Of a stretch of 64,000 nt of DNA, positions 4,850-64,000 are shown piece by piece (positions within the stretch are counted from its first letter, which is position 1; the number at the start of each line of letters is the position of its first letter). The DNA is from Escherichia coli (lineage in GTDB: Bacteria; Pseudomonadota; Gammaproteobacteria; Enterobacterales; Enterobacteriaceae). Location of the stretch: NCBI RefSeq assembly GCF_013315695.1, contig NZ_CP054353.1. One strand, 5' to 3'. Under the pieces are notes generated by a model that was not told the origin of the DNA, did no database searches, and was given only the letters and a program-made list of their open reading frames with translations. The position numbers and the translations under genes are program-made.

Positions 4850-5055
4850 TTTTCATCCCTGCCACAATGGCCCGTTAGCAACGTCGAATAATTATTATGC
4901 GTGAGAATTTACGTTATGTAATTCAGTATCACGCCCATACAATCCGAATTTTAGTGAGAATTGTGGCTCAGACAGCCAAATCAGCCTCTTTTGCTTGTCG
5001 CTTTTCACTAAACATCCGACAATTTAGCCTAACCCCGGCAAAAATGGAGATGCCT

Positions 5056-5901
5056 ATGTCCACGACATGGTTTGTAGGAGCCGACTGGCTCGCCGAACAT
5101 ATTGATGACCCGGAAATTCAGATTATCGATGCCCGCATGGCGTCGCCTGGACAGGAAGATCGTAACGTTGCTCAGGAGTATCTGAATGGACATATTCCCG
5201 GCGCAGTGTTTTTTGATATCGAAGCGCTTTCTGATCACACTTCCCCGCTTCCGCACATGCTGCCGCGCCCGGAAACGTTCGCCGTGGCGATGCGTGAATT
5301 AGGCGTTAACCAGGATAAGCACCTGATTATCTATGACGAAGGTAATCTTTTCTCAGCCCCACGAGCATGGTGGATGCTGCGCACCTTTGGTGTAGAGAAA
5401 GTGTCGATTCTGGGGGGTGGACTTGCAGGCTGGCAGCGCGATGATCTGCTGTTAGAAGAAGGTGCAGTAGAGCTGCCGGAAGGAGAGTTTAACGCCACGT
5501 TTAATCCTGAAGCCGTGGTGAAAGTCACCGATGTGTTATTGGCAAGCCATGAAAATACGGCGCAAATTATTGATGCCCGCCCGGCTGCACGTTTTAACGC
5601 AGAAGTTGATGAACCTCGCCCAGGTTTACGTCGCGGACATATTCCCGGTGCATTGAACGTTCCGTGGACGGAACTGGTGCGCGAAGGCGAACTAAAAACG
5701 ACCGATGAACTGGATGCGATATTTTTTGGTCGCGGCGTCAGCTATGACAAACCGATTATCGTCAGCTGCGGCTCTGGTGTAACGGCAGCCGTGGTTTTGT
5801 TGGCACTCGCGACACTTGATGTGCCAAACGTGAAACTGTACGACGGCGCATGGAGTGAATGGGGCGCACGAGCAGATTTACCGGTTGAGCCCGTAAAATA
5901 A
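5056..5901 (+). CDS. sseA: 3-mercaptopyruvate sulfurtransferase (rhodanese family), 281 aa
   Basis: Internal ATG at 5056 with GGAG 5 nt upstream; product starts MSTTWFVGADW. The track ORF 4897..5901 is a longer upstream extension. Confidence 0.93.
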   Translation: MSTTWFVGADWLAEHIDDPEIQIIDARMASPGQEDRNVAQEYLNGHIPGAVFFDIEALSDHTSPLPHMLPRPETFAVAMRELGVNQDKHLIIYDEGNLFSAPRAWWMLRTFGVEKVSILGGGLAGWQRDDLLLEEGAVELPEGEFNATFNPEAVVKVTDVLLASHENTAQIIDARPAARFNAEVDEPRPGLRRGHIPGALNVPWTELVREGELKTTDELDAIFFGRGVSYDKPIIVSCGSGVTAAVVLLALATLDVPNVKLYDGAWSEWGARADLPVEPVK

Positions 5902-6037: not shown

Positions 6038-6092
6038 GGTGATGCTGCCAACTTACTGATTTAGTGTATGATGGTGTTTTTGAGGTGCTCCA

Positions 6093-6368
6093 GTGGCTTC
6101 TGTTTCTATCAGCTGTCCCTCCTGTTCAGCTACTGACGGGGTGGTGCGTAACGGCAAAAGCACCGCCGGACATCAGCGCTATCTCTGCTCTCACTGCCGT
6201 AAAACATGGCAACTGCAGTTCACTTACACCGCTTCTCAACCCGGTACGCACCAGAAAATCATTGATATGGCCATGAATGGCGTTGGATGCCGGGCAACAG
6301 CCCGCATTATGGGCGTTGGCCTCAACACGATTTTACGTCACTTAAAAAACTCAGGCCGCAGTCGGTAA
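6093..6368 (+). CDS. insA: IS1 InsA (transposition inhibitor / N-terminal part of InsAB' transposase), 91 aa
   Basis: ORF translation [37 protein letters not shown]... matches IS1 InsA as I recall it. Confidence 0.95.
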
Positions 6369-6790
6369 CCTCGCGCATACAGCCGGGCAGTGACGTCATC
6401 GTCTGCGCGGAAATGGACGAACAGTGGGGCTATGTCGGGGCTAAATCGCGCCAGCGCTGGCTGTTTTACGCGTATGACAGGCTCCGGAAGACGGTTGTTG
6501 CGCACGTATTCGGTGAACGCACTATGGCGACGCTGGGGCGTCTTATGAGCCTGCTGTCACCCTTTGACGTGGTGATATGGATGACGGATGGCTGGCCGCT
6601 GTATGAATCCCGCCTGAAGGGAAAGCTGCACGTAATCAGCAAGCGATATACGCAGCGAATTGAGCGGCATAACCTGAATCTGAGGCAGCACCTGGCACGG
6701 CTGGGACGGAAGTCGCTGTCGTTCTCAAAATCGGTGGAGCTGCATGACAAAGTCATCGGGCATTATCTGAACATAAAACACTATCAATAA
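6287..6790 (+). CDS. insB: IS1 InsB reading frame (joined to InsA by -1 frameshift to make the transposase), 167 aa
   Basis: ORF translation [21 protein letters not shown]... matches IS1 InsB. A6C slippery motif at 6344-6350 lies in the insA/insB overlap. Confidence 0.93.
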
Positions 6791-6805
6791 GTTGGAGTCA
6801 TTACC

Positions 6806-6814: not shown

Positions 6815-6960
6815 AAGTAGATAAAAAAGGATAGATTTTGAATTCATTTGGCTTATCAGTCCGAATTCAGACAAATATAAACAAATCCCGCTTAATATTA
6901 AAATATACTAACTGGTAAAAGATATTACTTAAACGTGTAATTTCACTTTCTTTAAACAAC

Positions 6961-7030
6961 AAAAAACCGCCAAAATCAGGCGGTTATTTGTTGCTGGTTT
7001 GGTTCGCGGCCTTTCCAGCAGGTTCACTTG
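6961..7030. repeat. Intergenic repeat module, copy B (includes a terminator-like hairpin at 6961-6992)
   Basis: AAAAAACCGCCaaaatcaGGCGGTTATTTGTTGCTGGTTTGGTTCGCGGCCTTTCCAGCAGGTT is near-identical to 5917-5980. Confidence 0.75.
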
Positions 7031-7285
7031 TGTTGCATGAACAACGCAGGTGCCTCACAGCAAAAGAATACTCGCTGTTAAGAAATTTTGTGTCAAGTAA
7101 AAAACGAGTAATTATTTTTCGGTTAGCGTATTATTGACACCGACCCTTTCCGCCGTCTCGCAAACGGGCGCTGGCTTTAGGAAAGGATGTTCCTTGGCCG
7201 TAAATGCAAGTGTATCTCGTCGCTTGCTATCGCGGCAATATCGCCAGTGGTGCTGTCGTGATGCGGTCTTCGCATGGACCGCACA

Positions 7286-7411
7286 ATGAAGATACGGTGC
7301 TTTTGTATCGTACTTATTGTTTCTGGTGCGCTGTTAACCGAGGTAAATAATAACCGGAGTCTCTCCGGTAACAATTTATTGGTGGTTAACAACCTTCAGA
7401 ACAGCAGGTAA
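7286..7411 (+). CDS. Hydrophobic small ORF inside ryfA, 41 aa (45 aa from ATG at 7274): MKIRCFCIVLIVSGALLTEVNNNRSLSGNNLLVVNNLQNSR; candidate TimP-like small membrane toxin
   Basis: Open frame translated by hand. One predicted transmembrane helix. Lies within the terminated transcript. Weak ribosome-binding site. Below the 60-aa cutoff of the ORF track. Confidence 0.4.
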   Translation: MKIRCFCIVLIVSGALLTEVNNNRSLSGNNLLVVNNLQNSR

Positions 7412-7417
7412 GCCCGA

Positions 7418-7444
7418 ATGCCGCCCTTTGGGGCGGCATATTTT
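7418..7444 (+). terminator. Intrinsic terminator of the ryfA-like transcript
   Basis: ATGCCGCCC(tttg)GGGCGGCAT followed by ATTTT; overlaps the sseB stop codon on the other strand. Confidence 0.75.
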
Positions 7445-14674: not shown

Positions 14675-14785
14675 TGCTCTATAAACTCCGTACATCACTC
14701 AATGCAAGGAACCAGGCTGCCGGCTGGATGTACGACCGTGTTTACGGAGTGTTTAGCACTCCGGCCTGATTCTGAATTCTTTTTA

Positions 14786-26295: not shown

Positions 26296-26310
26296 GGTAA
26301 TGACTCCAAC

Positions 26311-26814
26311 TTATTGATAGTGTTTTATGTTCAGATAATGCCCGATGACTTTGTCATGCAGCTCCACCGATTTTGAGAACGACAGCGACTTCCGTCCCAG
26401 CCGTGCCAGGTGCTGCCTCAGATTCAGGTTATGCCGCTCAATTCGCTGCGTATATCGCTTGCTGATTACGTGCAGCTTTCCCTTCAGGCGGGATTCATAC
26501 AGCGGCCAGCCATCCGTCATCCATATCACCACGTCAAAGGGTGACAGCAGGCTCATAAGACGCCCCAGCGTCGCCATAGTGCGTTCACCGAATACGTGCG
26601 CAACAACCGTCTTCCGGAGCCTGTCATACGCGTAAAACAGCCAGCGCTGGCGCGATTTAGCCCCGACATAGCCCCACTGTTCGTCCATTTCCGCGCAGAC
26701 GATGACGTCACTGCCCGGCTGTATGCGCGAGGTTACCGACTGCGGCCTGAGTTTTTTAAGTGACGTAAAATCGTGTTGAGGCCAACGCCCATAATGCGGG
26801 CTGTTGCCCGGCAT
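26311..26814 (-). CDS. insB: IS1 InsB reading frame, 167 aa
   Basis: Identical protein to the 6287..6790 ORF. Confidence 0.93.
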
Positions 26815-27008
26815 CCAACGCCATTCATGGCCATATCAATGATTTTCTGGTGCGTACCGGGTTGAGAAGCGGTGTAAGTGAACTGCAGTTGCCATGTTTT
26901 ACGGCAGTGAGAGCAGAGATAGCGCTGATGTCCGGCGGTGCTTTTGCCGTTACGCACCACCCCGTCAGTAGCTGAACAGGAGGGACAGCTGATAGAAACA
27001 GAAGCCAC
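26733..27008 (-). CDS. insA: IS1 InsA, 91 aa
   Basis: Identical protein to the 6093..6368 ORF. Confidence 0.95.
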
Positions 27009-27063
27009 TGGAGCACCTCAAAAACACCATCATACACTAAATCAGTAAGTTGGCAGCATCACC

Positions 27064-41052: not shown

Positions 41053-41427
<375 letters not shown>

Positions 41428-41451: not shown

Positions 41452-42786
41452 TCATTCCTTGAAATCGTTTGCATCCAGCTCGTGTCGGGAAAGCAGTTTA
41501 TAAAATTCTGTCCGGTTGCGCCCCGCCATTCTCGCCGCGTGGGTGACGTTGCCTTTGGTAATTTGCAGCAGCTTACGCAAATAGTTGAGTTCAAACTGAT
41601 TACGTGCCTCAACAAAGGTTGGCAGCGCCGTATTTTCACCCTCCAGCGCCTGCTCCACCAGCGCATCACTAATCACCGGAGATGAGGTCAGCGCCACGCA
41701 CTGTTCAATCACGTTGACCAACTGGCGCACATTACCCGGCCAGCTAGCGGTCATCAGGCGTTTCATCGCATCGGTGGAGAACGCGCGGACAAACGGTTTA
41801 TGTCGCTCTGCCGCCTGGCGCAACAGGTGATTTGCCAGTAGCGGAATGTCTTCTGTGCGCTCCGCCAGTGCCGGAATTTTCAGGCTGACAACGTTGAGGC
41901 GGTAATAGAGATCTTCGCGGAATTCCCCGCGCGCCATCGCTTTTGGCAGGTCGCGGTGAGTGGCAGAAATAATCCGCACGTCGATATCAATATCGCGGTT
42001 ACTGCCCAGCGGGCGCACTTTACGCTCCTGCAACACGCGCAGCAGTTTGACCTGCAACGGTGCGGGCATATCGCCAATCTCATCGAGAAATAGCGTACCG
42101 CCTTCCGCCGCCTGGAATAAACCTTCGCGATTGCTGACAGCGCCAGTAAACGCGCCACGCGCATGACCAAACAGCTCCGACTCCAGCAATTGCTCGGGCA
42201 ATGCGCCACAGTTAATAGCAATAAATGGTTTGCTGTTGCGCGGGCTGGCGTTGTGGATAGCCTGGGCGAAAATCTCTTTCCCGGTGCCGCTCTGGCCGTT
42301 AATCAAAACGCTAACGTCTGATTGCGCCACCAGCCGCGCCTGTTCCAGCAAACGCAGCATCAGCGGGCTGCGGGTGACAATCGCCTCGCGCCAGCGTTCG
42401 TCGGTGGCTGGCGCGGATTGTTCCAGCGCATCGTCAATTGCCTGATATAGCGCGTCTTTATCGACAGGCTTGGTGAGGAAACTAAAAACGCCCTGCTGTG
42501 TTGCTGCAACGGCATCGGGAATAGAACCATGCGCGGTAAGAATAATTACCGGCATTCCAGGCTGCACTTTCTGGATTTCAGCAAATAGCTGCATACCATC
42601 CATTTCATCCATTCGCAGGTCGCTGATGACTAAATCTACTTTTTCGCGATTCAGTACCCGTAATCCTTCAGCGCCACTTTCCGCTGTGACCACGCTGTAG
42701 CCTTCGCTGGTCAGACGCAGGCCAAGCAGTTTCAGCAATCCCGGATCGTCATCGACCAATAATAAATGCGCAGGTTTATGGCTCAT
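41452..42786 (-). CDS. glrR: Sigma54-dependent response regulator GlrR (YfhA/QseF), 444 aa
   Basis: ATG at 42786 gives [18 protein letters not shown]...; AAA+ Walker A GQSGTGKE and ESELFGH motif; C-terminal helix-turn-helix. Confidence 0.93.
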
Positions 42787-43489
42787 CAGGAGTGACCTCA
42801 TCGGTGGATGGCGCGGGCTTTTCACTCTCGTGCGGCGTATCCGGCGAGAAATTTCCAGCCGGTTTGCGGGTCGAGAGCTGGCGTTCAATATCAGTCAGGT
42901 TTTCCAGCTTGCGGGTGGTGAGTTCCAGTTGCTGCTGTAGAACGTGATATTGCTGGCGCAAAGTATCCAGCTCGCTGTCGCTGGACTGCTGGAGTTTACT
43001 GTAGCGTTGGCGCTCTTCCGCCAGTTGCAGTTGCAGCGCCTGACCGTCGCGCCAAAGTTGATACAGAGGGCGAACCTGTGCCGGGATCTCGGTACTTAGC
43101 GCATCAATGCGCGCGACCAGCTGGCGGCACTCATACGGCGTAATTTTGGCGTCGGCGAGCAAAATCCCTTGTTTAAAGGTATTTTGCCAGCTGCCGTCGT
43201 CATATTGGCGGGCTTGCTGACGCGACTGCGCAGGCATTAAACGATCAGCACAATCCATCGCCCGCAGCCAGTAAAGCGGATTGGTTTCGGTTGATTTACC
43301 TTGCAGCGCCCAGATGTCGCTACATTCAGTAGAAAGATAGTCAGCCAGTTGATAAACCGGAATTTTTTCTTCTGCTGGCGTATCAATGGCTGGCTTATTG
43401 TGACTCTGCACGCAACCCAGCAATGCCAGACATGGCAGCCCTGCCAGCCACAGCCGTCGGGGCAATAATCGTTGAAAAATGTGTCGCAT
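42776..43489 (-). CDS. qseG: Outer-membrane lipoprotein QseG (YfhG), 237 aa
   Basis: MRHIFQRLLPRRLWLAGLPCLALLGC lipobox; 11-bp overlap with the glrR start. Confidence 0.9.
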   Translation of the reverse strand: MRHIFQRLLPRRLWLAGLPCLALLGCVQSHNKPAIDTPAEEKIPVYQLADYLSTECSDIWALQGKSTETNPLYWLRAMDCADRLMPAQSRQQARQYDDGSWQNTFKQGILLADAKITPYECRQLVARIDALSTEIPAQVRPLYQLWRDGQALQLQLAEERQRYSKLQQSSDSELDTLRQQYHVLQQQLELTTRKLENLTDIERQLSTRKPAGNFSPDTPHESEKPAPSTDEVTPDEP

Positions 43490-43653: not shown

Positions 43654-45081
43654 TTATTTCGTGTTTTTCGACGACGGTAATTCAATGCGGAAACAAACAT
43701 CTTGCCCGCTCTCGTCGACCAGATACAGTTCCCCTTGCATACGGCGAATACAATCCCTGGCAATGCTTAATCCCAGACCGCTGCCCTTCACCGCCCCTTT
43801 TCGCTGGTGGCTTCCCTGAAAAAAGGGTTCGAAGATCATGGCGCGTTCCTCTTGCGGAATGGGCGTGCCTGTATTGATGACATCAATATAAACCCGCGCA
43901 CCATGTAAACTGCTGCGAAGGCAAATGTTACCGGATTCAGCCCCGTAGTGCACCGCATTGGAGTAAAGATTATCCAGTACGCTCATCAGCAGCATTGGCT
44001 CCGCCAGGCAAGCTGTTGCTTTGAGATCAACGTCGGTATGCATCATTTTAGCCCGTGCGGGCAGGCTATGAGCAGAAACCACAGTCTCCACCAGCGGTGC
44101 TAACTCAACATTCTCCAGTTCCACCGCACTGTCCGCCTGTTTACGGTTGTAATCAAGCAGTTGTTCGATCAGTTTTTGCAAATTGCGGCTGCTGCTATCA
44201 AGAATGCTCACCACCTCTTTTTGCTCTGGCGTAAGCGGCCCGACAACCTGGTCAGCCAGTAATTCAGTGCCCTCGCGCATACTCGCCAGTGGCGTTTTTA
44301 ATTCATGAGATAAATGTCTTAAAAATTGATGGCGTTGGGATTCCAGCCATGACAGGCGCTCACTTAACCAAAGAATACGTTGCCCAACCGAGCGTAACTC
44401 GCTCGGTCCACTGAACGAAACGCTATTGCCCAGAGAACGCCCTTCCCCCAGCCGGTTGATCATGCGCTCGATATTTTTCACCGGACCGATAATCATCCTC
44501 GTGAAAAGCAGTACCATCACCAGACTCACCAGAAATAGCACCAGCGATTGCCAACCAAAATATTGCCCACGTTCGGCGATTTCACGCTGAAGTTGCTGCC
44601 CACGAGAGAACACCACTGTGCGCGTGGCCTGCACCATTTCGGTATTGGCACTGGCAAAGGCTTCAAGACGTGCGGCGGCAGCAGCATCGGGACCGCTGTT
44701 GTTACACTGAAGTTGAGCCAGATTATTCAAATCCTGACGTAATGCCTGGTAGAGTTTATCGTCCGGCAGCACGCCTGCGTGGGCATCGAGCATTTCGCTG
44801 TAACGCTTGCGCTGGCTTTGATAAACCTTCGCAAGCGTAGGGTCGTCCAGCACGCAATACTGACGGTAGCTACGCTCCATCTCCAGCGCCGCGTTGGTCA
44901 TCGCTTCACTACGCCGGGCATCAATAAGCGTAGTGCGGTTAACCAGCGCCGCCTGATCGCTAAGCGCATTCAGGCTTTGCCAGGCTTGCCATGCCAGCAC
45001 CAACAGGGGTAGCAGAATCAGCAAAAATGCCAGCATTACCAGTTGTCGTAATGAGCGGGGAAAAACGGGCCAGCGTTTCAA
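43654..45081 (-). CDS. glrK: Sensor histidine kinase GlrK (YfhK/QseE), 475 aa, TTG start
   Basis: TTG at 45081 gives MKRWPVFPRSL...; H-box HELKTPL; two transmembrane segments. Confidence 0.9.
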   Translation of the reverse strand: MKRWPVFPRSLRQLVMLAFLLILLPLLVLAWQAWQSLNALSDQAALVNRTTLIDARRSEAMTNAALEMERSYRQYCVLDDPTLAKVYQSQRKRYSEMLDAHAGVLPDDKLYQALRQDLNNLAQLQCNNSGPDAAAAARLEAFASANTEMVQATRTVVFSRGQQLQREIAERGQYFGWQSLVLFLVSLVMVLLFTRMIIGPVKNIERMINRLGEGRSLGNSVSFSGPSELRSVGQRILWLSERLSWLESQRHQFLRHLSHELKTPLASMREGTELLADQVVGPLTPEQKEVVSILDSSSRNLQKLIEQLLDYNRKQADSAVELENVELAPLVETVVSAHSLPARAKMMHTDVDLKATACLAEPMLLMSVLDNLYSNAVHYGAESGNICLRSSLHGARVYIDVINTGTPIPQEERAMIFEPFFQGSHQRKGAVKGSGLGLSIARDCIRRMQGELYLVDESGQDVCFRIELPSSKNTK

Positions 45082-45137
45082 GGTGTTACTCTCGTCAGAC
45101 GCGAATAGCCTGATGCTAACCGAGGGGAAGTTCAGAT

Positions 45138-45323
45138 ACAACAAAGCCGGGAATTACCCGGCTTTGTTATGGAATAAGGCGGTGCCTAACTCGACGTTTC
45201 GCCCGAGGGTTGATATAGCTACGCTGATATCAGAAGTTGGACGGCAGGCACCTTGTTGTGCGTCATTCGAATTTTATGTAGCACGTCCCGAAGGGGCTGA
45301 CATAAGTCGGTGAATGAGCCACT
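45138..45323 (-). ncRNA. glmY: GlmY small RNA
   Basis: Minus-strand sequence AGTGGCTCATTCACCGACTTATGTCAGCC...AAAGCCGGGTAATTCCCGGCTTTGTTGT matches GlmY as I recall it; terminator hairpin at the 3' end; lies directly upstream of glrK. Confidence 0.85.
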
Positions 45324-45334
45324 GGTTACTATTA

Positions 45335-45350
45335 TGCAGTAACTGTGCCA
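45335..45350 (-). promoter_or_regulatory. Sigma54 (-24/-12) promoter of glmY
   Basis: Minus-strand TGGCAC-N5-CTGCA placed about 12 nt upstream of the glmY 5' end. Confidence 0.75.
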
Positions 45351-45439
45351 ATAAAGAAAATAGTTTGGTAACGTACTGATTATACGCTGCTTTGAGGGGT
45401 TTATGGCTTCTCCGCTATTTGAATGTAAATCAGCCACTG

Positions 45440-45553
45440 TGTCGCTAAAAAGAGACAACTTAAGATAATTTTATTAGATAATATTAAAATCAATGAGTTA
45501 AGTGTCGCCAGAAAGCGACATGGCAAACCACCCATTGTCGTGATTTACAGACA
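45440..45553. promoter_or_regulatory. Three TGTC-N10-GACA boxes (GlrR-type binding sites) upstream of glmY
   Basis: TGTCGCTAAAAAGAGACA (45440-45457), TGTCGCCAGAAAGCGACA (45503-45520), TGTCGTGATTTACAGACA (45536-45553). Confidence 0.8.
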
Positions 45554-45602
45554 CAAAAAAGCTCCCGGAGTTGGGAGCTTATGATAGTGGTTGGTGCTTA
45601 AT

Positions 45603-45633
45603 GCCGGATGCGGCGTGAATGCCTCATCCGGGC
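45603..45633. repeat. REP element downstream of purL
   Basis: GCCGGATGCGGCGTGAATGCCTCATCCGGGC. Confidence 0.7.
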
Positions 45634-45657: not shown

Positions 45658-48600
45658 TTACCCCAACTGCTTACGTGCATTGCGGAAAATGCGCATCCAT
45701 GGGCCATCCTCGCCCCAGTTTTCCGGATGCCAGGAGTTGCTGACAGTACGGAAAACACGTTCCGGGTGCGGCATCATAATAGTGACTCGACCACTTTCAG
45801 TCGTGACCGCCGTAATACCATTCGGAGAACCGTTCGGGTTAGCCGGGTAGGTTTCAGTGACTTTGCCGAAGTTATCGACATAGCGCAGTGCCACCAGCCC
45901 TTTACTTTCCAGCGCCACCAGATGCGCCGCATCACGCACTTCCACGCGCCCTTCACCATGAGAGACAGCAATCGGCATTTGCGAGCCCACCATCCCCTGC
46001 AATAGCAGCGACGAGCTTTGGGTTACTTCAACCAGGCTGAAACGCGCTTCAAAGCGATCGGAGGTATTGCGCACAAAACGTGGCCACAACTCACTACCTG
46101 GGATCAGTTCGCGCAGATTAGACATCATCTGGCAACCGTTACATACCCCCAGCGCCAGCGTTTGCGGACGGTGGAAGAAGGTTGCAAACTCATCGCGTAC
46201 ACGGTCATTGAACAGGATAGACTTCGCCCAGCCTTCACCAGCACCCAGCACGTCACCGTAGGAGAATCCGCCGCACGCTACCAGAGCGTGGAAATCCTCC
46301 AGGCCCGTGCGTCCAGCCAGCAGGTCGCTCATATGCACATCGATTGCATCGAAGCCTGCACGGTGGAAAGCTGCCGCCATTTCAACATGCGAGTTCACCC
46401 CCTGCTCACGCAGCACGGCAACTTTCGGACGCGCACCAGTGGCAATATACGGTGCTGCCACATCTTCGTTGATATCGAACGACAGTTTCACATTCAGGCC
46501 CGGATCGGCGTCGTTTGATTTCGCCTGGTGCTCCTGGTCGGCACACTCCGGGTTGTCACGCAGGCGCTGCATCTGCCAGGTAGTTTCTGCCCACCAGACA
46601 CGCAACGTAGTGCGGCTTTCGCTGAATACAGTCTGCCCGTTGGCGGTAATCACAAAACGGTCACCGGAAACCGCCTGCCCTACATAATGGACGCAATCCG
46701 CAACCCCATGCAGTGCCAGTACGGACTCGACCGCTTCACGGTCAGCGGCACGAACCTGAATCACCGCACCCAGTTCTTCGTTAAACAACGCCGCCAGGCG
46801 ATCGTCACCCAGAGAGGCGATATCTGCGTCAATGCCACAATGACCAGCAAACGCCATTTCCGCCAGCGTTACCAGCAGGCCGCCATCAGAGCGGTCGTGA
46901 TACGCCAGCAGCTTACGCTGTGCTACCAGCGCCTGAACCGCGTCATAGAAACCTTTCAGTTGCGCGACATCGCGTACATCTGCCGGTTTGTCGCCAAGCT
47001 GACGATAAACCTGCGCCAGCGCCGTTGCACCCAACGCGTTATTGCCTTTGCCCAAATCAATCAGCAACAGTGCGTTATCTTCGGTAGAAAGCTGCGGCGT
47101 GATGGTGTGACGCACATCTTCCACACGGGCAAATGCGGAAATCACCAGCGACAGCGGCGACGTCATTTCGCGCTCTTCGTTACCTTCCTGCCAGCGGGTT
47201 TTCATCGACATAGAGTCTTTACCCACCGGGATCGTCAGGCCCAGCGCCGGACAAAGTTCTTCGCCCACAGCTTTAACGGCTTCATACAGGCCCGCATCTT
47301 CACCAGGGTGGCCTGCCGCCGCCATCCAGTTGGCGGAAAGTTTAATGCGTTTGATATCGCCAATCTGTGTTGCGGCAATATTGGTTAACGCTTCACCGAC
47401 CGCCAGACGGGCAGAGGCGGCGAAATCCAGCAGCGCAACCGGCGCACGCTCGCCAATCGCCATCGCTTCGCCGTAGTAGCTATCGAGGCTGGCGGTAGTG
47501 ACCGCGCAGTTAGCGACCGGCACCTGCCACGGACCCACCATCTGATCGCGCGCTACCATGCCGGTTACGCTGCGATCGCCGATGGTCACCAGAAAGGTTT
47601 TCTCCGCCACAGTCGGCAGATGTAACACACGTTTCACCGCGTCAGCGATGGTGATCCCTTCACGGGCCAGCGCGTCGCCTTTCGCTTTCAGCGTTTGTAC
47701 ATCGCGAGTCATCTTCGGCGTTTTGCCGAGTAGCACGTCCAGCGGCAGATCGATGGGTTGATTATCAAAATGACGATCGTGCAGAGAAAGATGTAATTCT
47801 TCGGTGGCCTCGCCAATCACCGCGTAGGGTGCTCGTTCACGCTTACACAGTTCGTCAAACAGCGGTAACTGATCGGCAGCAACCGCCAGCACGTAGCGTT
47901 CCTGGGATTCGTTACACCAGATCTCCAGCGGGCTCATGCCCGGTTCGTCGCTCAGGATATCGCGCAGTTCAAATTTACCGCCGCGCCCGCCGTCGCTCAC
48001 CAGTTCCGGCATGGCGTTAGAAAGACCGCCTGCGCCAACGTCGTGGATAAACAGGATTGGGTTGGCATCACCAAGCTGCCAGCAACGGTCGATCACTTCC
48101 TGGCAGCGACGCTCCATCTCCGGGTTGTCGCGCTGTACGGAAGCAAAGTCGAGGTCCGCATCAGACTGACCAGATGCCATAGAAGACGCCGCGCCGCCGC
48201 CAAGACCGATGTTCATTGCCGGGCCGCCGAGAACGACCAGCTTCGCACCAACGTTGATCTCGCCTTTTTGTACGTGATCGGCGCGAATGTTGCCGATCCC
48301 ACCCGCCAGCATGATCGGTTTGTGATAACCGCGCAGCTCTTCGCCATTGTGGCTGTTCACTTTTTCTTCATAGGTACGGAAGTAGCCGTTCAGTGCCGGA
48401 CGACCAAATTCGTTGTTAAATGCCGCGCCGCCCAGCGGACCTTCTGTCATGATGTCCAGCGCGGTGACAATGCGCTCAGGCTTACCGAAATCTTCTTCCC
48501 ACGGTTGTTCAAAGCCAGGAATACGCAGGTTGGATACGGAGAAACCGACCAGGCCAGCTTTCGGCTTCGCGCCGCGGCCGGTGGCACCTTCATCGCGGAT

Positions 48601-49545
48601 TTCACCGCCGGAACCGGTCGCCGCGCCCGGCCACGGAGAAATCGCCGTCGGGTGGTTGTGGGTTTCAACTTTCATCAGAATATGCGCCGGTTCCTGATGG
48701 AAATCGTAGCGGCCCGTTTCGTGGTCGGCAAAGTAGCGACCCACTTCAGAACCTTCCATTACGGCGGCGTTATCTTTATAAGCAGAGAGAACGTGGTCTG
48801 GCGTGGTTTCGAAGGTGTTTTTGATCATCTTGAACAGCGATTTCGGCTGCTGTTCACCGTCGATAATCCAGTCGGCGTTAAAAATTTTGTGACGGCAGTG
48901 CTCGGAGTTCGCCTGCGCGAACATATACAGCTCGATGTCGTTCGGGTTACGACCAAGCTTTGTGAACGCATCCTGCAGATAGTCAATCTCATCTTCCGCC
49001 AGCGCCAGACCAAGACGCAGGTTAGCGTCGATTAGCGCCTGACGGCCCTGCCCCAGCAAATCAATGCTGGTGACCGGGGTTGGCTGATGATGAGCAAACA
49101 ACTGCTCTGCATCATCTAAAGCAAAAAAGACCGTTTCCATCATGCGGTCGTGCAGTTCAGCGGTCACCTGCTGCCATTGTTCATTGGTCAGCGTACCGGC
49201 TTCTATATAGTAAGCCACGCCGCGCTCAAGGCGGTTAACCTGTTGCAGCCCGCAGTTATGGGCAATATCGGTCGCTTTCGAAGACCAGGGAGAGATGGTG
49301 CCAGGACGCGGGGTCACCAGCAGGAGTTTGCCTTGCGGGGCGTGGCTGGCGAGTGCCGGGCCATATTTCAGCAGGCGTTCAAGTTGTGCGTGCTCATCAT
49401 CGTTTAACGGCGCATTGAGGTCAGCAAAATGGACATACTCGGCGTAAATAGTGTGAACCGGGAGCCTGGCAGCCTGAAAACGTGCCAGCAGTTTGTTGAT
49501 TCGGAATGCCGACAATGCAGGCGAACCACGCAGAATTTCCATCAT
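45658..49545 (-). CDS. purL: Phosphoribosylformylglycinamidine synthase, 1295 aa
   Basis: Full-length [23 protein letters not shown]... Confidence 0.97.
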
Positions 49546-54520: not shown

Positions 54521-54595
54521 TGTTGGAATCGTGTGCTGCACAAAATTAAAGTTGTAAAGTGAACCCCCCCGTTCCTTACCAGTTCGGGGGTTTTA
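54521..54595 (+). ncRNA. ohsC: OhsC antitoxin small RNA (boundaries approximate)
   Basis: Promoter TTGTAC-N18-CATAAT; the 19-nt element TTGGAATCGTGTGCTGCAC at 54523-54541 is a direct repeat of 54274-54292 in the shoB leader, giving antisense pairing; intrinsic terminator at 54564-54594. Confidence 0.7.
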
Positions 54596-54619
54596 CTTTA
54601 TAAAGAGAACGGTATTTTT

Positions 54620-56482: not shown

Positions 56483-58095
<1,613 letters not shown>

Positions 58096-58293
58096 TCAGC
58101 ACACGAAACAGACCTGATATACATGGCTCTGCTAACTGCTTCGCTGCAGTTTCAGTTTACCGGTATATGGGGACCAACGCTGTTTCGTGTGCCGTGGCAA
58201 CCTGGAGGTGCCAACCTTAAACTTCGGGGGAATATTCTATACACAACGACGGGGGATGTCGTTAGCCACGGGAGATTTATCTCATAAATAATT

Positions 58294-59327: not shown

Positions 59328-61127
<1,800 letters not shown>

Positions 61128-61324
61128 AAAGTATGATTATTGTGCCTTAATGCCCGGTTAACCAGGCTTTTAGAAGTCGCTGTTCTGAGCTTAACGTCTG
61201 TATTAATAGAAACGCCGCATTCTACACTACAACATTGAGGCGAGGAAATGTTCATACCGTATGGATTGTGGTATCTGGAAACGTCCTCGCATTTGTTATG
61301 CAAAATGCAACAAAGCCAGTGAAA

Positions 61325-61804
61325 TCACTGGCTCGCGTCTTCCGAAGATGTTTCAAATCGCACAAGGCCAGGCGGCAAGGCCACGCTTAAGATGATCGGT
61401 TGCCATTCTGCCCGGGCAGCAAACTTACGCGAGTAGCCACGTGCAATCAGGAATCCACCAACGCCACCGAGAATCGCACCGCATAATGCTGCAATATCTG
61501 AAGCAAAGAGTAGCTGAAATAGTGAAGCGATGAGGAATAGTCCCACCAACGGCGACATATAAACCAGTAATGCGGAGCTAAGCAGGCTGCCTTCGGCGAT
61601 TCCTAATTCTACTTTTTGCCCCGGCACTAACGGTTCATCACAGGGTACGACAATGGTATGCGTAGTTTGCGGGCCAAGTTTATTCAACACGCGGCTACCG
61701 CAACCGGCGCGTGAAGCGCAGCTGCTGCATGAGGCTTTAACATCACAACTAACCAGCGCCTGCCCGTTTTCCCAGGAGACGACGGTAGCCCACTCTTTGA
61801 TCAT
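61325..61804 (-). CDS. rseC: SoxR-reducing system / sigma-E regulatory protein RseC, 159 aa
   Basis: Synteny downstream of rseB; 4-bp overlap. Confidence 0.92.
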   Translation of the reverse strand: MIKEWATVVSWENGQALVSCDVKASCSSCASRAGCGSRVLNKLGPQTTHTIVVPCDEPLVPGQKVELGIAEGSLLSSALLVYMSPLVGLFLIASLFQLLFASDIAALCGAILGGVGGFLIARGYSRKFAARAEWQPIILSVALPPGLVRFETSSEDASQ

Positions 61805-62757
61805 TGCGCTGCCCCGAACTTAATATTCTCGGCAATGCGTTTCGCCGTTTGCGGCGGCAGTTCACCGACAATGGTGATTTCGGCGTTATCACGTACGCTT
61901 GTACTGACGGTTCTGCGTCCGGTGCGCAACATCTGATCGGTGCTCGATGGCGTAGCGCGGTTAACGTTTACCGAAAAGCTGAATAATCCGTCGGAATAGA
62001 GACGTGATTCGATAGGCATGTTGTCCATCGTCGGTAGCGGACGTCGACTACTGGAAACTTCGCTAAAACCCTGTGGCAACCAGGTTGGCGTCCAGCTGAA
62101 TTTAGCTTTTTCACCTACAGGAACAGAAAGCAACGGCGGCAAATTTGCCTTCGCCAGCGTCTGCATACTGCTGCTGATATCCTGATTGACATTAAAAGCA
62201 ATCACGCGAAATTGTTCCAGCGTTTCACCATCGCGATCAAGGAGATCAACCCTCATCGGTAATTTCGATTCGGTGTCCATCCACACGATGTAGCTGTAGC
62301 GTGTACCATCTCGGGCAACCACGCGAATAACTTCGCAAAGACGATCAGCAATACGCGTGCGCCCGACGGAGATAAAGTCGTAGTAAGGAGAAAGGCGTTT
62401 GAAATCGGTATAGATGAGCGATGGCAGAGAATCAACAATGTAATCGCCATTAAGCGTGAACGGTTCAAGTCCCGGTTCAAAATAGCTGATCTCATTGCCG
62501 CGCTGTACCACTTCCCGGCGCGGGCCATCCATTTGCAACAATTGTGCAAGAGGACGGTTATCGAGGCGTGCATGTCGATAACGCAGAGACTCAACACCCT
62601 GTTTATTGATGCTGATGAATGACAGCTCGTAATTCAGTGACTGACTGGCCAGGTTCATCTGCTGTAATAACGCCCCGGACGCGGGAGTGGCCGAGGCGTT
62701 AGCAGAGAATAACAGGCTACCTGTCACTAATGACATGGCAAACCAAAGTTGCTTCAT
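61801..62757 (-). CDS. rseB: Sigma-E regulatory periplasmic protein RseB, 318 aa
   Basis: Signal peptide MKQLWFAMSLVTGSLLFSANASA. Confidence 0.95.
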   Translation of the reverse strand: MKQLWFAMSLVTGSLLFSANASATPASGALLQQMNLASQSLNYELSFISINKQGVESLRYRHARLDNRPLAQLLQMDGPRREVVQRGNEISYFEPGLEPFTLNGDYIVDSLPSLIYTDFKRLSPYYDFISVGRTRIADRLCEVIRVVARDGTRYSYIVWMDTESKLPMRVDLLDRDGETLEQFRVIAFNVNQDISSSMQTLAKANLPPLLSVPVGEKAKFSWTPTWLPQGFSEVSSSRRPLPTMDNMPIESRLYSDGLFSFSVNVNRATPSSTDQMLRTGRRTVSTSVRDNAEITIVGELPPQTAKRIAENIKFGAAQ

Positions 62758-63407
62758 TACTGCGATTGCGTTCCTAAAGTTTGAATTCCTGGCACCTGTA
62801 CAGCGGCTTGCTGAGTTTGCGCCTGCTCAAACTGAAGCTGTTCAGAGTGGAGTCGGCGTTGCAGTTCGTAATCCTGCAACATTGCATTAATGCGACGACG
62901 CTGCTCCTGTACCTGCTGCTGTTGACCATTGTTTGCGGTCGCTTCAGAAGGTACTCCCAGGCTTACCGGGCTGGCTTTACCCATCATCGGCAGTGTATTA
63001 AATACCGGCGTTTCGGGCTGCTGGGACGTTTCAGATTGTCCATTATAGTGCTGGACGCCAACGATAACTGCAAGCGATACGCATGCGGCTACGCCCATTT
63101 GGGTAAGCTGTGCCGCCCACGGACGTACTTTCTGCCAGAATGGCATTTTCTGCCATTGATGCGGCGCAGGCTGGGCTTCCGGGATCAATGTCGCCGGTTG
63201 ACGTACTGGCTCTTCTTCAATGGCGGCCATCACGCGTGAAGAGATATCGAAATGGAGCACCTCGGGAGTATCACCCCGCATTGAGTCACGGATTAAGTGA
63301 TAGTTTTCCCAGGTTTTCTGCATTTCTGGGTTATGAGCCAGTTCGTTAAGCAGCTCACTATCCAGCGTTTCGCCATCCATTAAAGCGGAAAGTTGTTCTT
63401 TCTGCAT
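62757..63407 (-). CDS. rseA: Anti-sigma-E factor RseA, 216 aa
   Basis: ATG at 63407 gives MQKEQLSALMDGETLD...; single transmembrane segment. Confidence 0.95.
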   Translation of the reverse strand: MQKEQLSALMDGETLDSELLNELAHNPEMQKTWENYHLIRDSMRGDTPEVLHFDISSRVMAAIEEEPVRQPATLIPEAQPAPHQWQKMPFWQKVRPWAAQLTQMGVAACVSLAVIVGVQHYNGQSETSQQPETPVFNTLPMMGKASPVSLGVPSEATANNGQQQQVQEQRRRINAMLQDYELQRRLHSEQLQFEQAQTQQAAVQVPGIQTLGTQSQ

Positions 63408-63439
63408 GCCTAATACCCTTATCCAGTATCCCGCTATCG

Positions 63440-64000
63440 TCAACGCCTGATAAGCGGTTGAACTTTGTTATCAATAGCTTCCCTCGCTCGGAAGATACGT
63501 GAACGCACCGTACCTACCGGACAATCCATGATAGCGGCTATCTCTTCATAGCTCAGGCCATCCAGCTCCCGCAAGGTTATTGCCATGCGTAAATCTTCCG
63601 GGAGGGACTCAATAGTTCGGAAAACTATCTGTCTCAGTTCTTCTGACAACATTAAGTTCTCAGGGTTCGAAATTTCTTTCAACGCGCCGCCACTTTCGAA
63701 GTTTTCAGCTTCAATGGCATCCACATCACTGGAAGGTGGACGACGCCCCTGAGCAACCAGGTAATTTTTCGCTGTATTTACAGCAATCCGATACAGCCAT
63801 GTATAAAAAGCGCTATCTCCCCGGAACGAATCCAGCGCACGATAGGCTTTAATAAAAGCTTCTTGTACCACATCGGGAACATCACCCGACGGCACATAGC
63901 GGGAAACCAGACTCGCCACTTTATGCTGATAGCGCACTACCAGTAAGTTAAAGGCTTTCTGATCTCCCTTCTGGACCCGTTCAACCAGGACCTGGTCCGT
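63440..64000 (-). CDS. rpoE: RNA polymerase sigma-E factor; N-terminal few codons lie beyond the window end
   Basis: Frame open to the window edge; sigma-70 region 2 and region 4 motifs (…YRIAVNTAKNY…, …LSYEEIAAIMDCPVGTVRSRI…). Confidence 0.93.
   Translation of the reverse strand, partial: TDQVLVERVQKGDQKAFNLLVVRYQHKVASLVSRYVPSGDVPDVVQEAFIKAYRALDSFRGDSAFYTWLYRIAVNTAKNYLVAQGRRPPSSDVDAIEAENFESGGALKEISNPENLMLSEELRQIVFRTIESLPEDLRMAITLRELDGLSYEEIAAIMDCPVGTVRSRIFRAREAIDNKVQPLIRR

Follow-up and report, generated by a model that had tools for sequence, protein, structure and literature searches.

The glmY locus in a 64-kb stretch of Escherichia coli: a sigma-54 promoter overlapping with a sigma-70 promoter, and GlrR and IHF sites upstream

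The window analysed here is a 64,000-nucleotide (64-kb) stretch of the Escherichia coli chromosome. On its minus strand, purL, glmY, glrK, qseG, glrR and glnB follow each other in exactly the order found in K-12. Positions are collected in Table 1. The 561 bases around glmY match several complete genomes at 100%, for instance that of strain MS 21-1, and the glmY region is present in all complete E. coli genomes but one (5425 of 5426). The RefSeq/PGAP record NZ_CP146670.1 is 100% identical to the window over the glmY stretch and leaves glmY unannotated between purL and qseE (5004-5579); the gene is annotated as b4441 in K-12 MG1655.

Table 1. Features of the glmY locus, from purL to glnB (window positions; distances in the last column are relative to the glmY start, +1)
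Feature	Position	Strand	Remarks
purL CDS	45658-49545	-	NCBIfam 2270 bits
REP-like palindrome GCCCGGATGAGGCATTCACGCCGCATCCGGC			between purL stop codon and purL terminator
purL intrinsic terminator	45559..45580	-	stem-loop AAGCTCCCAACTCCGGGAGCTT and T-run; terminator scan
purL-glmY intergenic region			334 bp
ABS1 TGTCTGTAAATCACGACA	45536-45553	-	-230 to -213; exact TGTC-N10-GACA, identical to K-12
ABS2 TGTCGCTTTCTGGCGACA	45503-45520	-	-197 to -180; exact TGTC-N10-GACA, identical to K-12
IHF site 1 (distal) AATCAATGAGTTA	45488..45500	+	exact WATCAANNNNTTR match, -177 to -165, between ABS2 and ABS3
ABS3 TGTCTCTTTTTAGCGACA	45440-45457	-	-134 to -117; exact TGTC-N10-GACA, identical to K-12
Candidate IHF site 2 (proximal) AATCAGTACGTTA	45369..45381	-	exact WATCARNNNNTTR match, -58 to -46, ABS3-promoter interval
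Sigma-54 promoter TTGGCACAGTTACTGCA	45335-45351	-	GG at -26/-25, GC at -14/-13; +1 = 45323
Sigma-70 -10 CATAAT	45331-45336	-	-13 to -8; identical to K-12
glmY primary transcript	45140..45323	-	184 nt; gap-free alignment to K-12 b4441
Processed GlmY form	45176-45323	-	148 nt, the span of the Rfam match
glmY terminator hairpin	45140-45168	-
Putative glrK-qseG-glrR sigma-70 promoter	45106..45141	-	TTGTAT (45136-45141), N17, TAGCAT (45113-45118)
glrK/qseE, sensor histidine kinase	43654..45081	-	475 aa, TTG start; HAMP, HisKA and HATPase_c domains
qseG (yfhG), outer-membrane lipoprotein	42776..43489	-	NCBIfam QseG equivalog 353 bits (cut-off 234); Pfam YfhG
glrR/qseF, sigma-54-dependent response regulator	41452..42786	-	444 aa; NCBIfam GlrR equivalog 983 bits (cut-off 763)
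glnB	41053-41391	-

A sequence-only reading of this stretch had placed the small RNA GlmY on the minus strand, and the covariance-model search confirmed it. Rfam RF00128 (GlmY) covers 45176-45323 on the minus strand over the full model (1-163), with 145.2 bits for a gathering score of 33 (E=3.7e-33). This is the sole match to clan CL00011 in the 64-kb window, where no glmZ was found. Gap-free alignment to K-12 b4441 showed 182 of the 184 bases to be equal. The two substitutions, +54 A>U (window 45270) and +117 A>C (window 45207), both fall at positions left unpaired by the Rfam consensus structure as well as by the MFE fold. The latter (-64.2 kcal/mol, z = -5.1) consists of two 5′ stem-loop domains and the terminator hairpin. 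Published lengths are 184 nt for the primary RNA and 148 nt for its active, processed form (PMC4152352). The location of glmY directly upstream of glrK-qseG-glrR is also the conserved synteny.

Just upstream of +1, the -24/-12 element of glmY carries the GG and GC dinucleotides ten bases apart. The underlying motif, TGGCAC-N5-CTGCA (TGGCACAGTTACTGCA) at 45335-45350, has one mismatch to TGGCAC-N5-TTGCA and extends from -27 to -12. Taken alone such a motif is not above chance, as 2 matches with at most one mismatch were found in the 64-kb window, against 2.1 expected. The other TGGCAC-like match (62534-62549, TTGCAC...) is devoid of the GG and lies inside rseB, and was rejected. What makes the glmY motif meaningful is where it lies, and that it equals a sigma-54 site known from published ChIP-seq: the 17-mer TTGGCACAGTTACTGCA is the K-12 site OS24, assigned to glmY, whose ChIP score of 200 is among the highest in the part of the published table that was covered (PMC4591121). 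The element had been predicted to stand at the expected distance from the start, and with -27 to -12 counted from 45323, it does. The K-12 glmY sigma-54 promoter is rpoN-dependent (PMC3045617).

The -12 element shares bases with a second promoter element, CATAAT, which the same K-12 study characterises as the -10 of a sigma-70 promoter having its start nucleotide in common with the sigma-54 promoter (PMC3045617). No convincing -35 sequence goes with the -10 of glmY, the best candidate showing 3 of 6 bases at a spacer of 18. A generic scan for sigma-70 promoters and terminators found the purL terminator only. The sigma-70 promoter and the terminator of glmY, and the promoter of glrK, all escaped it, so that on these three the scan is no evidence either way. 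The overlapping sigma-70 promoter and the IHF sites were absent from the sequence-only reading.

Further upstream, the T-run of the purL terminator leads straight into the box ABS1, the first of three exact TGTC-N10-GACA sequences, all inside 114 bp. These are the only 3 exact matches in 64 kb, where 0.58 were expected, and 1 of 100 shuffles reached 3. Matches with one mismatch are not enriched in the 64-kb window (16 found, 21.5 expected), which leaves no further credible GlrR sites there. Three evenly spaced boxes had been announced; the boxes are exact, but their spacing is not even, centre-to-centre distances being 33 bp and 63 bp, or about three and six helical turns. Comparison with published work on GlrR sites shows agreement in layout: in K-12, GlrR binds, at over 100 bp upstream of glmY, to three TGTCN10GACA motifs, ABS1 being dispensable and less conserved and ABS3 essential (PMC3045617). 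Binding having been published for the identical K-12 sequence, the prediction that the three boxes are GlrR/QseF upstream activating sequences is supported.

In the K-12 study, two IHF-like regions are reported to flank ABS3, and mutation of IHF site 1 abolishes sigma-54 activity (PMC3045617). Expression of glmY was ∼4 to 5 fold lower in ihf mutants or with a mutated IHF site 1; this is the level of a glrR mutant, and it was abolished when the -10 was mutated as well (PMC3045617). Judging from the wording “distal site” and “flanking ABS3”, the consensus match at 45488..45500 probably corresponds to the published IHF site 1, and the one at 45369..45381 may represent the second IHF-like region.

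Next to glmY lie the genes of its presumed regulators. RefSeq labels a stretch identical to the first of them QseE/GlrK. The second, qseG, encodes a protein required for QseE/QseF activity (PMC6075780), and overlaps glrR by 11 nt. The GlrR product contains Response_reg, Sigma54_activat and AAA_lid_14 domains, with D56 as phospho-acceptor and a GAFTGA motif at residues 211-216. These features and the equivalog score bear out the expected response regulator with a sigma54-activator AAA+ domain. Pfam reported no C-terminal HTH in GlrR at E≤0.001, so that the HTH assignment rests on the end-to-end coverage of the equivalog (model 1-445). That glrR is encoded two genes downstream on the same strand is correct if glrK and qseG are counted as the genes lying between glmY and glrR.

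In front of glrK, the sequence TTGTAT-N17-TAGCAT is probably the own sigma-70 promoter of glrK-qseG-glrR, with a start near 45106. It agrees with the consensus at 8 of 12 bases, too few to pass the threshold of the scan, and its -35 and the tail of the glmY terminator overlap. In K-12 the three genes have their own sigma-70 start, 25 bp upstream of qseE, and are not autoregulated (PMC6075780). The description of the locus as a compact, self-contained regulatory module therefore stands as far as the gene neighbourhood is concerned, and no further, because the regulators are transcribed independently in K-12, without autoregulation, and the rpoN and IHF genes are located elsewhere.

We considered whether glmY, glrK, qseG and glrR could instead form one operon, read from the glmY promoter, with GlrR activating its own synthesis in a positive feedback. 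The four genes share a strand and lie at short distances (58 nt from the glmY 3′ end to the glrK start), the glmY terminator, whose T-run is interrupted (TTTGTTGT), went unnoticed in the terminator scan, and co-transcription from the glmY promoter has been reported for Proteus mirabilis (PMC8745638). In K-12, however, a qseE'-lacZ fusion had the same activity with or without the whole glmY locus and was unaffected by deletion of qseF or qseG, and RT-PCR found readthrough from glmY to be virtually absent (PMC6075780). The other K-12 study likewise has the regulators “transcribed independently” (PMC3045617). As the window equals K-12 from glmY +118 through the glrK start codon, a single operon is highly improbable here, and autoregulation by readthrough in E. 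coli was rejected on this published evidence and sequence identity.

The likeness to K-12 extends to the whole locus. Base-identical are the boxes, both IHF-consensus sites, the sigma-54 17-mer, CATAAT, +1, the glmY terminator and the glmY-glrK spacer, the identity being unbroken over the interval just mentioned. Gene order, motifs and the RNA length of 184 nt are all shared with the K-12 glmY (b4441) region, and the differences amount to strain-level polymorphism only. Seven substitutions are found in the intergenic region, between -198 and -64, all of them outside the motifs. Compared to MG1655, the REP-like palindrome (GCCCGGATGAGGCATTCACGCCGCATCCGGC) contains 18 extra bp, at 45607-45624 of the window.

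The K-12 glmY promoter region was reportedly the subject of a primary footprinting paper by Reichenbach, Gopel and Gorke in 2009 (Mol Microbiol 74:1054). The study of Gopel et al. 2011 (NAR 39:1294; PMC3045617) describes the same K-12 promoter region. The locus is thus already fully known, having been worked out by experiment in E. coli K-12, and since every functional element found here is identical to K-12, it is not important as a discovery. It can serve as a positive control, being a case where a small RNA gene and its enhancer architecture are recognisable from raw sequence. In the present analysis, the RNA and protein identities, the motif positions and their excess over chance, the identity to K-12 and the cross-genus layout were established; binding, the dependence on sigma-54 and IHF, phosphorylation and the decoy mechanism are taken from papers dealing with the K-12 sequence, which is identical.

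To compare layouts across genera, species-representative genomes were scanned with the pattern TGGCAC-N6-TGC-N12-20-GCTCATTC, which yielded at least 120 stretches. Among the matches listed, 42 stretches had a full upstream sequence and a GlrK homologue just downstream, and were treated as glmY loci because of this homologue. They represent, among the matches listed, about 25 genera, from Escherichia to Proteus, Dickeya and Xenorhabdus, and including Yersinia and Shimwellia. For these same listed loci, three boxes (≤1 mismatch) were present in 34 of 42, the ABS1-ABS2 distance was 32 or 33 bp in all 37 scorable loci, and ABS2-ABS3 was 63 bp in 37 of 39. An IHF-like site (≤1 mismatch) lay 20 nt after the ABS2 start in 37 of 39 of the listed loci, and another (≤1 mismatch) stood 28-33 nt upstream of TGGCAC in 30 of 42, compared to 1 of 42 at the control offsets of 60-65. 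The unequal 33/63 spacing, recurring across the 42 loci, has thus been conserved and is no peculiarity of this strain. A further 48 stretches among the matches listed served as control class. Three of them had the three-box pattern: those of Providencia and [Erwinia], which Rfam identifies as glmY, and one from Enterobacter with short downstream DNA. The other 45 control matches, among those listed, had none or one near-box. This provides a rule for GlrR-controlled promoters, namely boxes spaced by 32/33 and 63 bp, with an IHF site 20 nt after the ABS2 start.

We also considered a second alternative, in which the sigma-54 element and the boxes would be relics, glmY being in practice transcribed from the sigma-70 promoter only, as is E. 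coli glmZ. Loss of this kind has a precedent, as the glmZ genes of E. coli and Klebsiella have lost their sigma-54/GlrR elements (PMC3045617), and CATAAT is a good -10. But the three boxes are perfect, as is the sigma-54 core, and none of them differs from K-12, sigma-54 occupies the K-12 site in vivo with a ChIP score of 200 (PMC4591121, table part covered), and K-12 glmY expression drops ∼4 to 5 fold without IHF or IHF site 1 (PMC3045617). With a layout conserved, in addition, across about 25 genera among the matches listed, we give relics even less credit than the single operon. Lastly, the palindromes might be products of chance or sites of another regulator, or the stretch might encode a small protein, as 1 of 100 shuffles gave three box matches somewhere in 64 kb and the mechanical list holds ORFs of 79 aa (45219-45458, minus strand) and 76 aa (45083-45313, plus strand); this is the least credible reading and can be practically dismissed, since a chance origin of the boxes is excluded by three exact matches within 114 bp whose spacing varies by no more than 1 bp over 42 loci of different genera (among the matches listed), the 79-aa ORF spans the promoter and enters the RNA, the 76-aa ORF runs antisense to an RNA that is structured and matches its covariance model over the full length, and neither is annotated in K-12 or in the window-identical record. 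Both ORFs overlapping glmY were rejected as coding.

The same 42 glmY loci, among the matches listed, show ABS3-to-TGGCAC distances that cluster near 92.5, 106, 113, 124, 132 and 145 bp. Helical phasing of this distance gave small p-values if the loci are taken as independent, but they are phylogenetically related; a Rayleigh test on the six distance clusters gave p ∼0.06-0.09. It is possible, though we hold it to be rather doubtful, that ABS1-ABS2-IHF1-ABS3 form a rigid cassette, fixed internally within 1 bp, whose distance to the promoter is stepped by about one helical turn; the phasing itself is suggestive only. If true, this would imply that the GlrR-IHF-sigma-54 loop is under a face-of-the-helix constraint; a known system would thereby be refined in a small way. 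The idea was not found stated in the accessible literature text, and published supplementary alignments may already show it.

Altogether, this stretch is almost certainly the E. coli glmY locus, in which a sigma-54 and a sigma-70 promoter overlap, the former being under the control of GlrR and IHF, and no observation speaks against this. Following the K-12 work, glmY transcription would start at 45323 from two promoters with a common start site. The sigma-70 promoter, weak and constitutive, would provide basal transcription, and the sigma-54 holoenzyme would stay in the closed complex pending its remodelling by GlrR/QseF, an enhancer-binding protein. GlrK/QseE, stimulated by the lipoprotein QseG, is expected to phosphorylate GlrR on D56; phosphorylated GlrR would then bind the boxes at -230 to -117 and activate the sigma-54 holoenzyme, IHF bending the DNA between boxes and promoter so that GlrR may reach sigma-54. 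The regulator genes, directly downstream of glmY, would be transcribed from their own weak sigma-70 promoter. As to the RNA, processed GlmY is known to sequester RapZ, whereby GlmZ is spared from RNase E, and GlmZ activates glmS translation (PMC4152352, PMC7073468). GlmY from this locus would likewise be trimmed to 148 nt and act as a decoy for RapZ, the adaptor of RNase E. Sequestration of RapZ would protect the homologue GlmZ, which would base-pair with the glmS mRNA and lead to more glucosamine-6-phosphate synthase.

The other known target of GlrR is the QseF/GlrR-dependent sigma-54 promoter of rpoE (PMC6075780). It was sought in the window and lies just outside, as the stretch 61325-63443 is taken up by rseC, rseB and rseA, and rpoE is cut off by the window end. 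The window holds 7 exact matches to the IHF consensus (WATCAANNNNTTR), a number not attained in any shuffle, for an expectation of 2.15; one sequence, present inside both copies of IS1, accounts for two of these matches (6782-6794 and 26307-26319). These two 768-bp copies (6038-6805 and 26296-27063) are 100% identical and inverted, bracketing 19,490 bp, and carry ORFs (91 aa and 167 aa) with matches to the IS1 transposase model. Rfam matches above the gathering score were also obtained for the IS128 RNA (6825-7003), which begins 20 bp past the IS1 copy end at 6805, for ryfA (7140-7444), the iscRS stability element (14676-14785), the ohsC antitoxin RNA (54522-54599), the rncO leader (58011-58225), and AsrC, antisense to rseC (61009-61840).

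Besides glmY of K-12, a known counterpart is the glmZ promoter. The gene encodes a homologous small RNA (RF00083), which belongs with GlmY to clan CL00011 and is found at a different locus. Among the matches listed in our scan, 22 stretches formed a class with a 41-nt match, and the 6 checked with Rfam were all glmZ. These six loci (RF00083) are the second match in their respective genomes, in Enterobacter, Serratia, Proteus and Tatumella; five of them possess a sigma-54 element and GlrR-like boxes at 32-33/63 bp (64 bp in Proteus). Each of the six lies within about 1-3 kb of a tRNA gene cluster. As the promoter study has it, the glmZ promoters of Yersinia, Salmonella, Enterobacter, Serratia and Proteus depend on sigma-54 and GlrR, while in E. 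coli and Klebsiella glmZ has lost the sigma-54/GlrR elements and has sigma-70 promoters instead (PMC3045617). The sigma-54-dependent glmZ promoters resemble glmY in having TGGCAC-N6-TGC and two or three TGTC-N10-GACA-like boxes, mostly spaced by 32-33/63 bp. They differ from it in the distance from TGGCAC to GCTCATTC, which is 41 nt at glmZ and 39 nt at glmY.

A wider comparison is offered by promoters of the NtrC type such as glnAp2, where a bEBP made of REC, AAA+ and DNA-binding domains binds dyads that lie over 100 bp upstream and works on a -24/-12 promoter by looping of the DNA. Like these, glmY combines a response-regulator bEBP, distant dyad sites and a -24/-12 promoter. Unlike them, its product is a non-coding RNA, its sites follow the consensus TGTC-N10-GACA and not that of NtrC, and its sigma-54 promoter is exactly overlapped by a sigma-70 promoter with the same start, as described for K-12.
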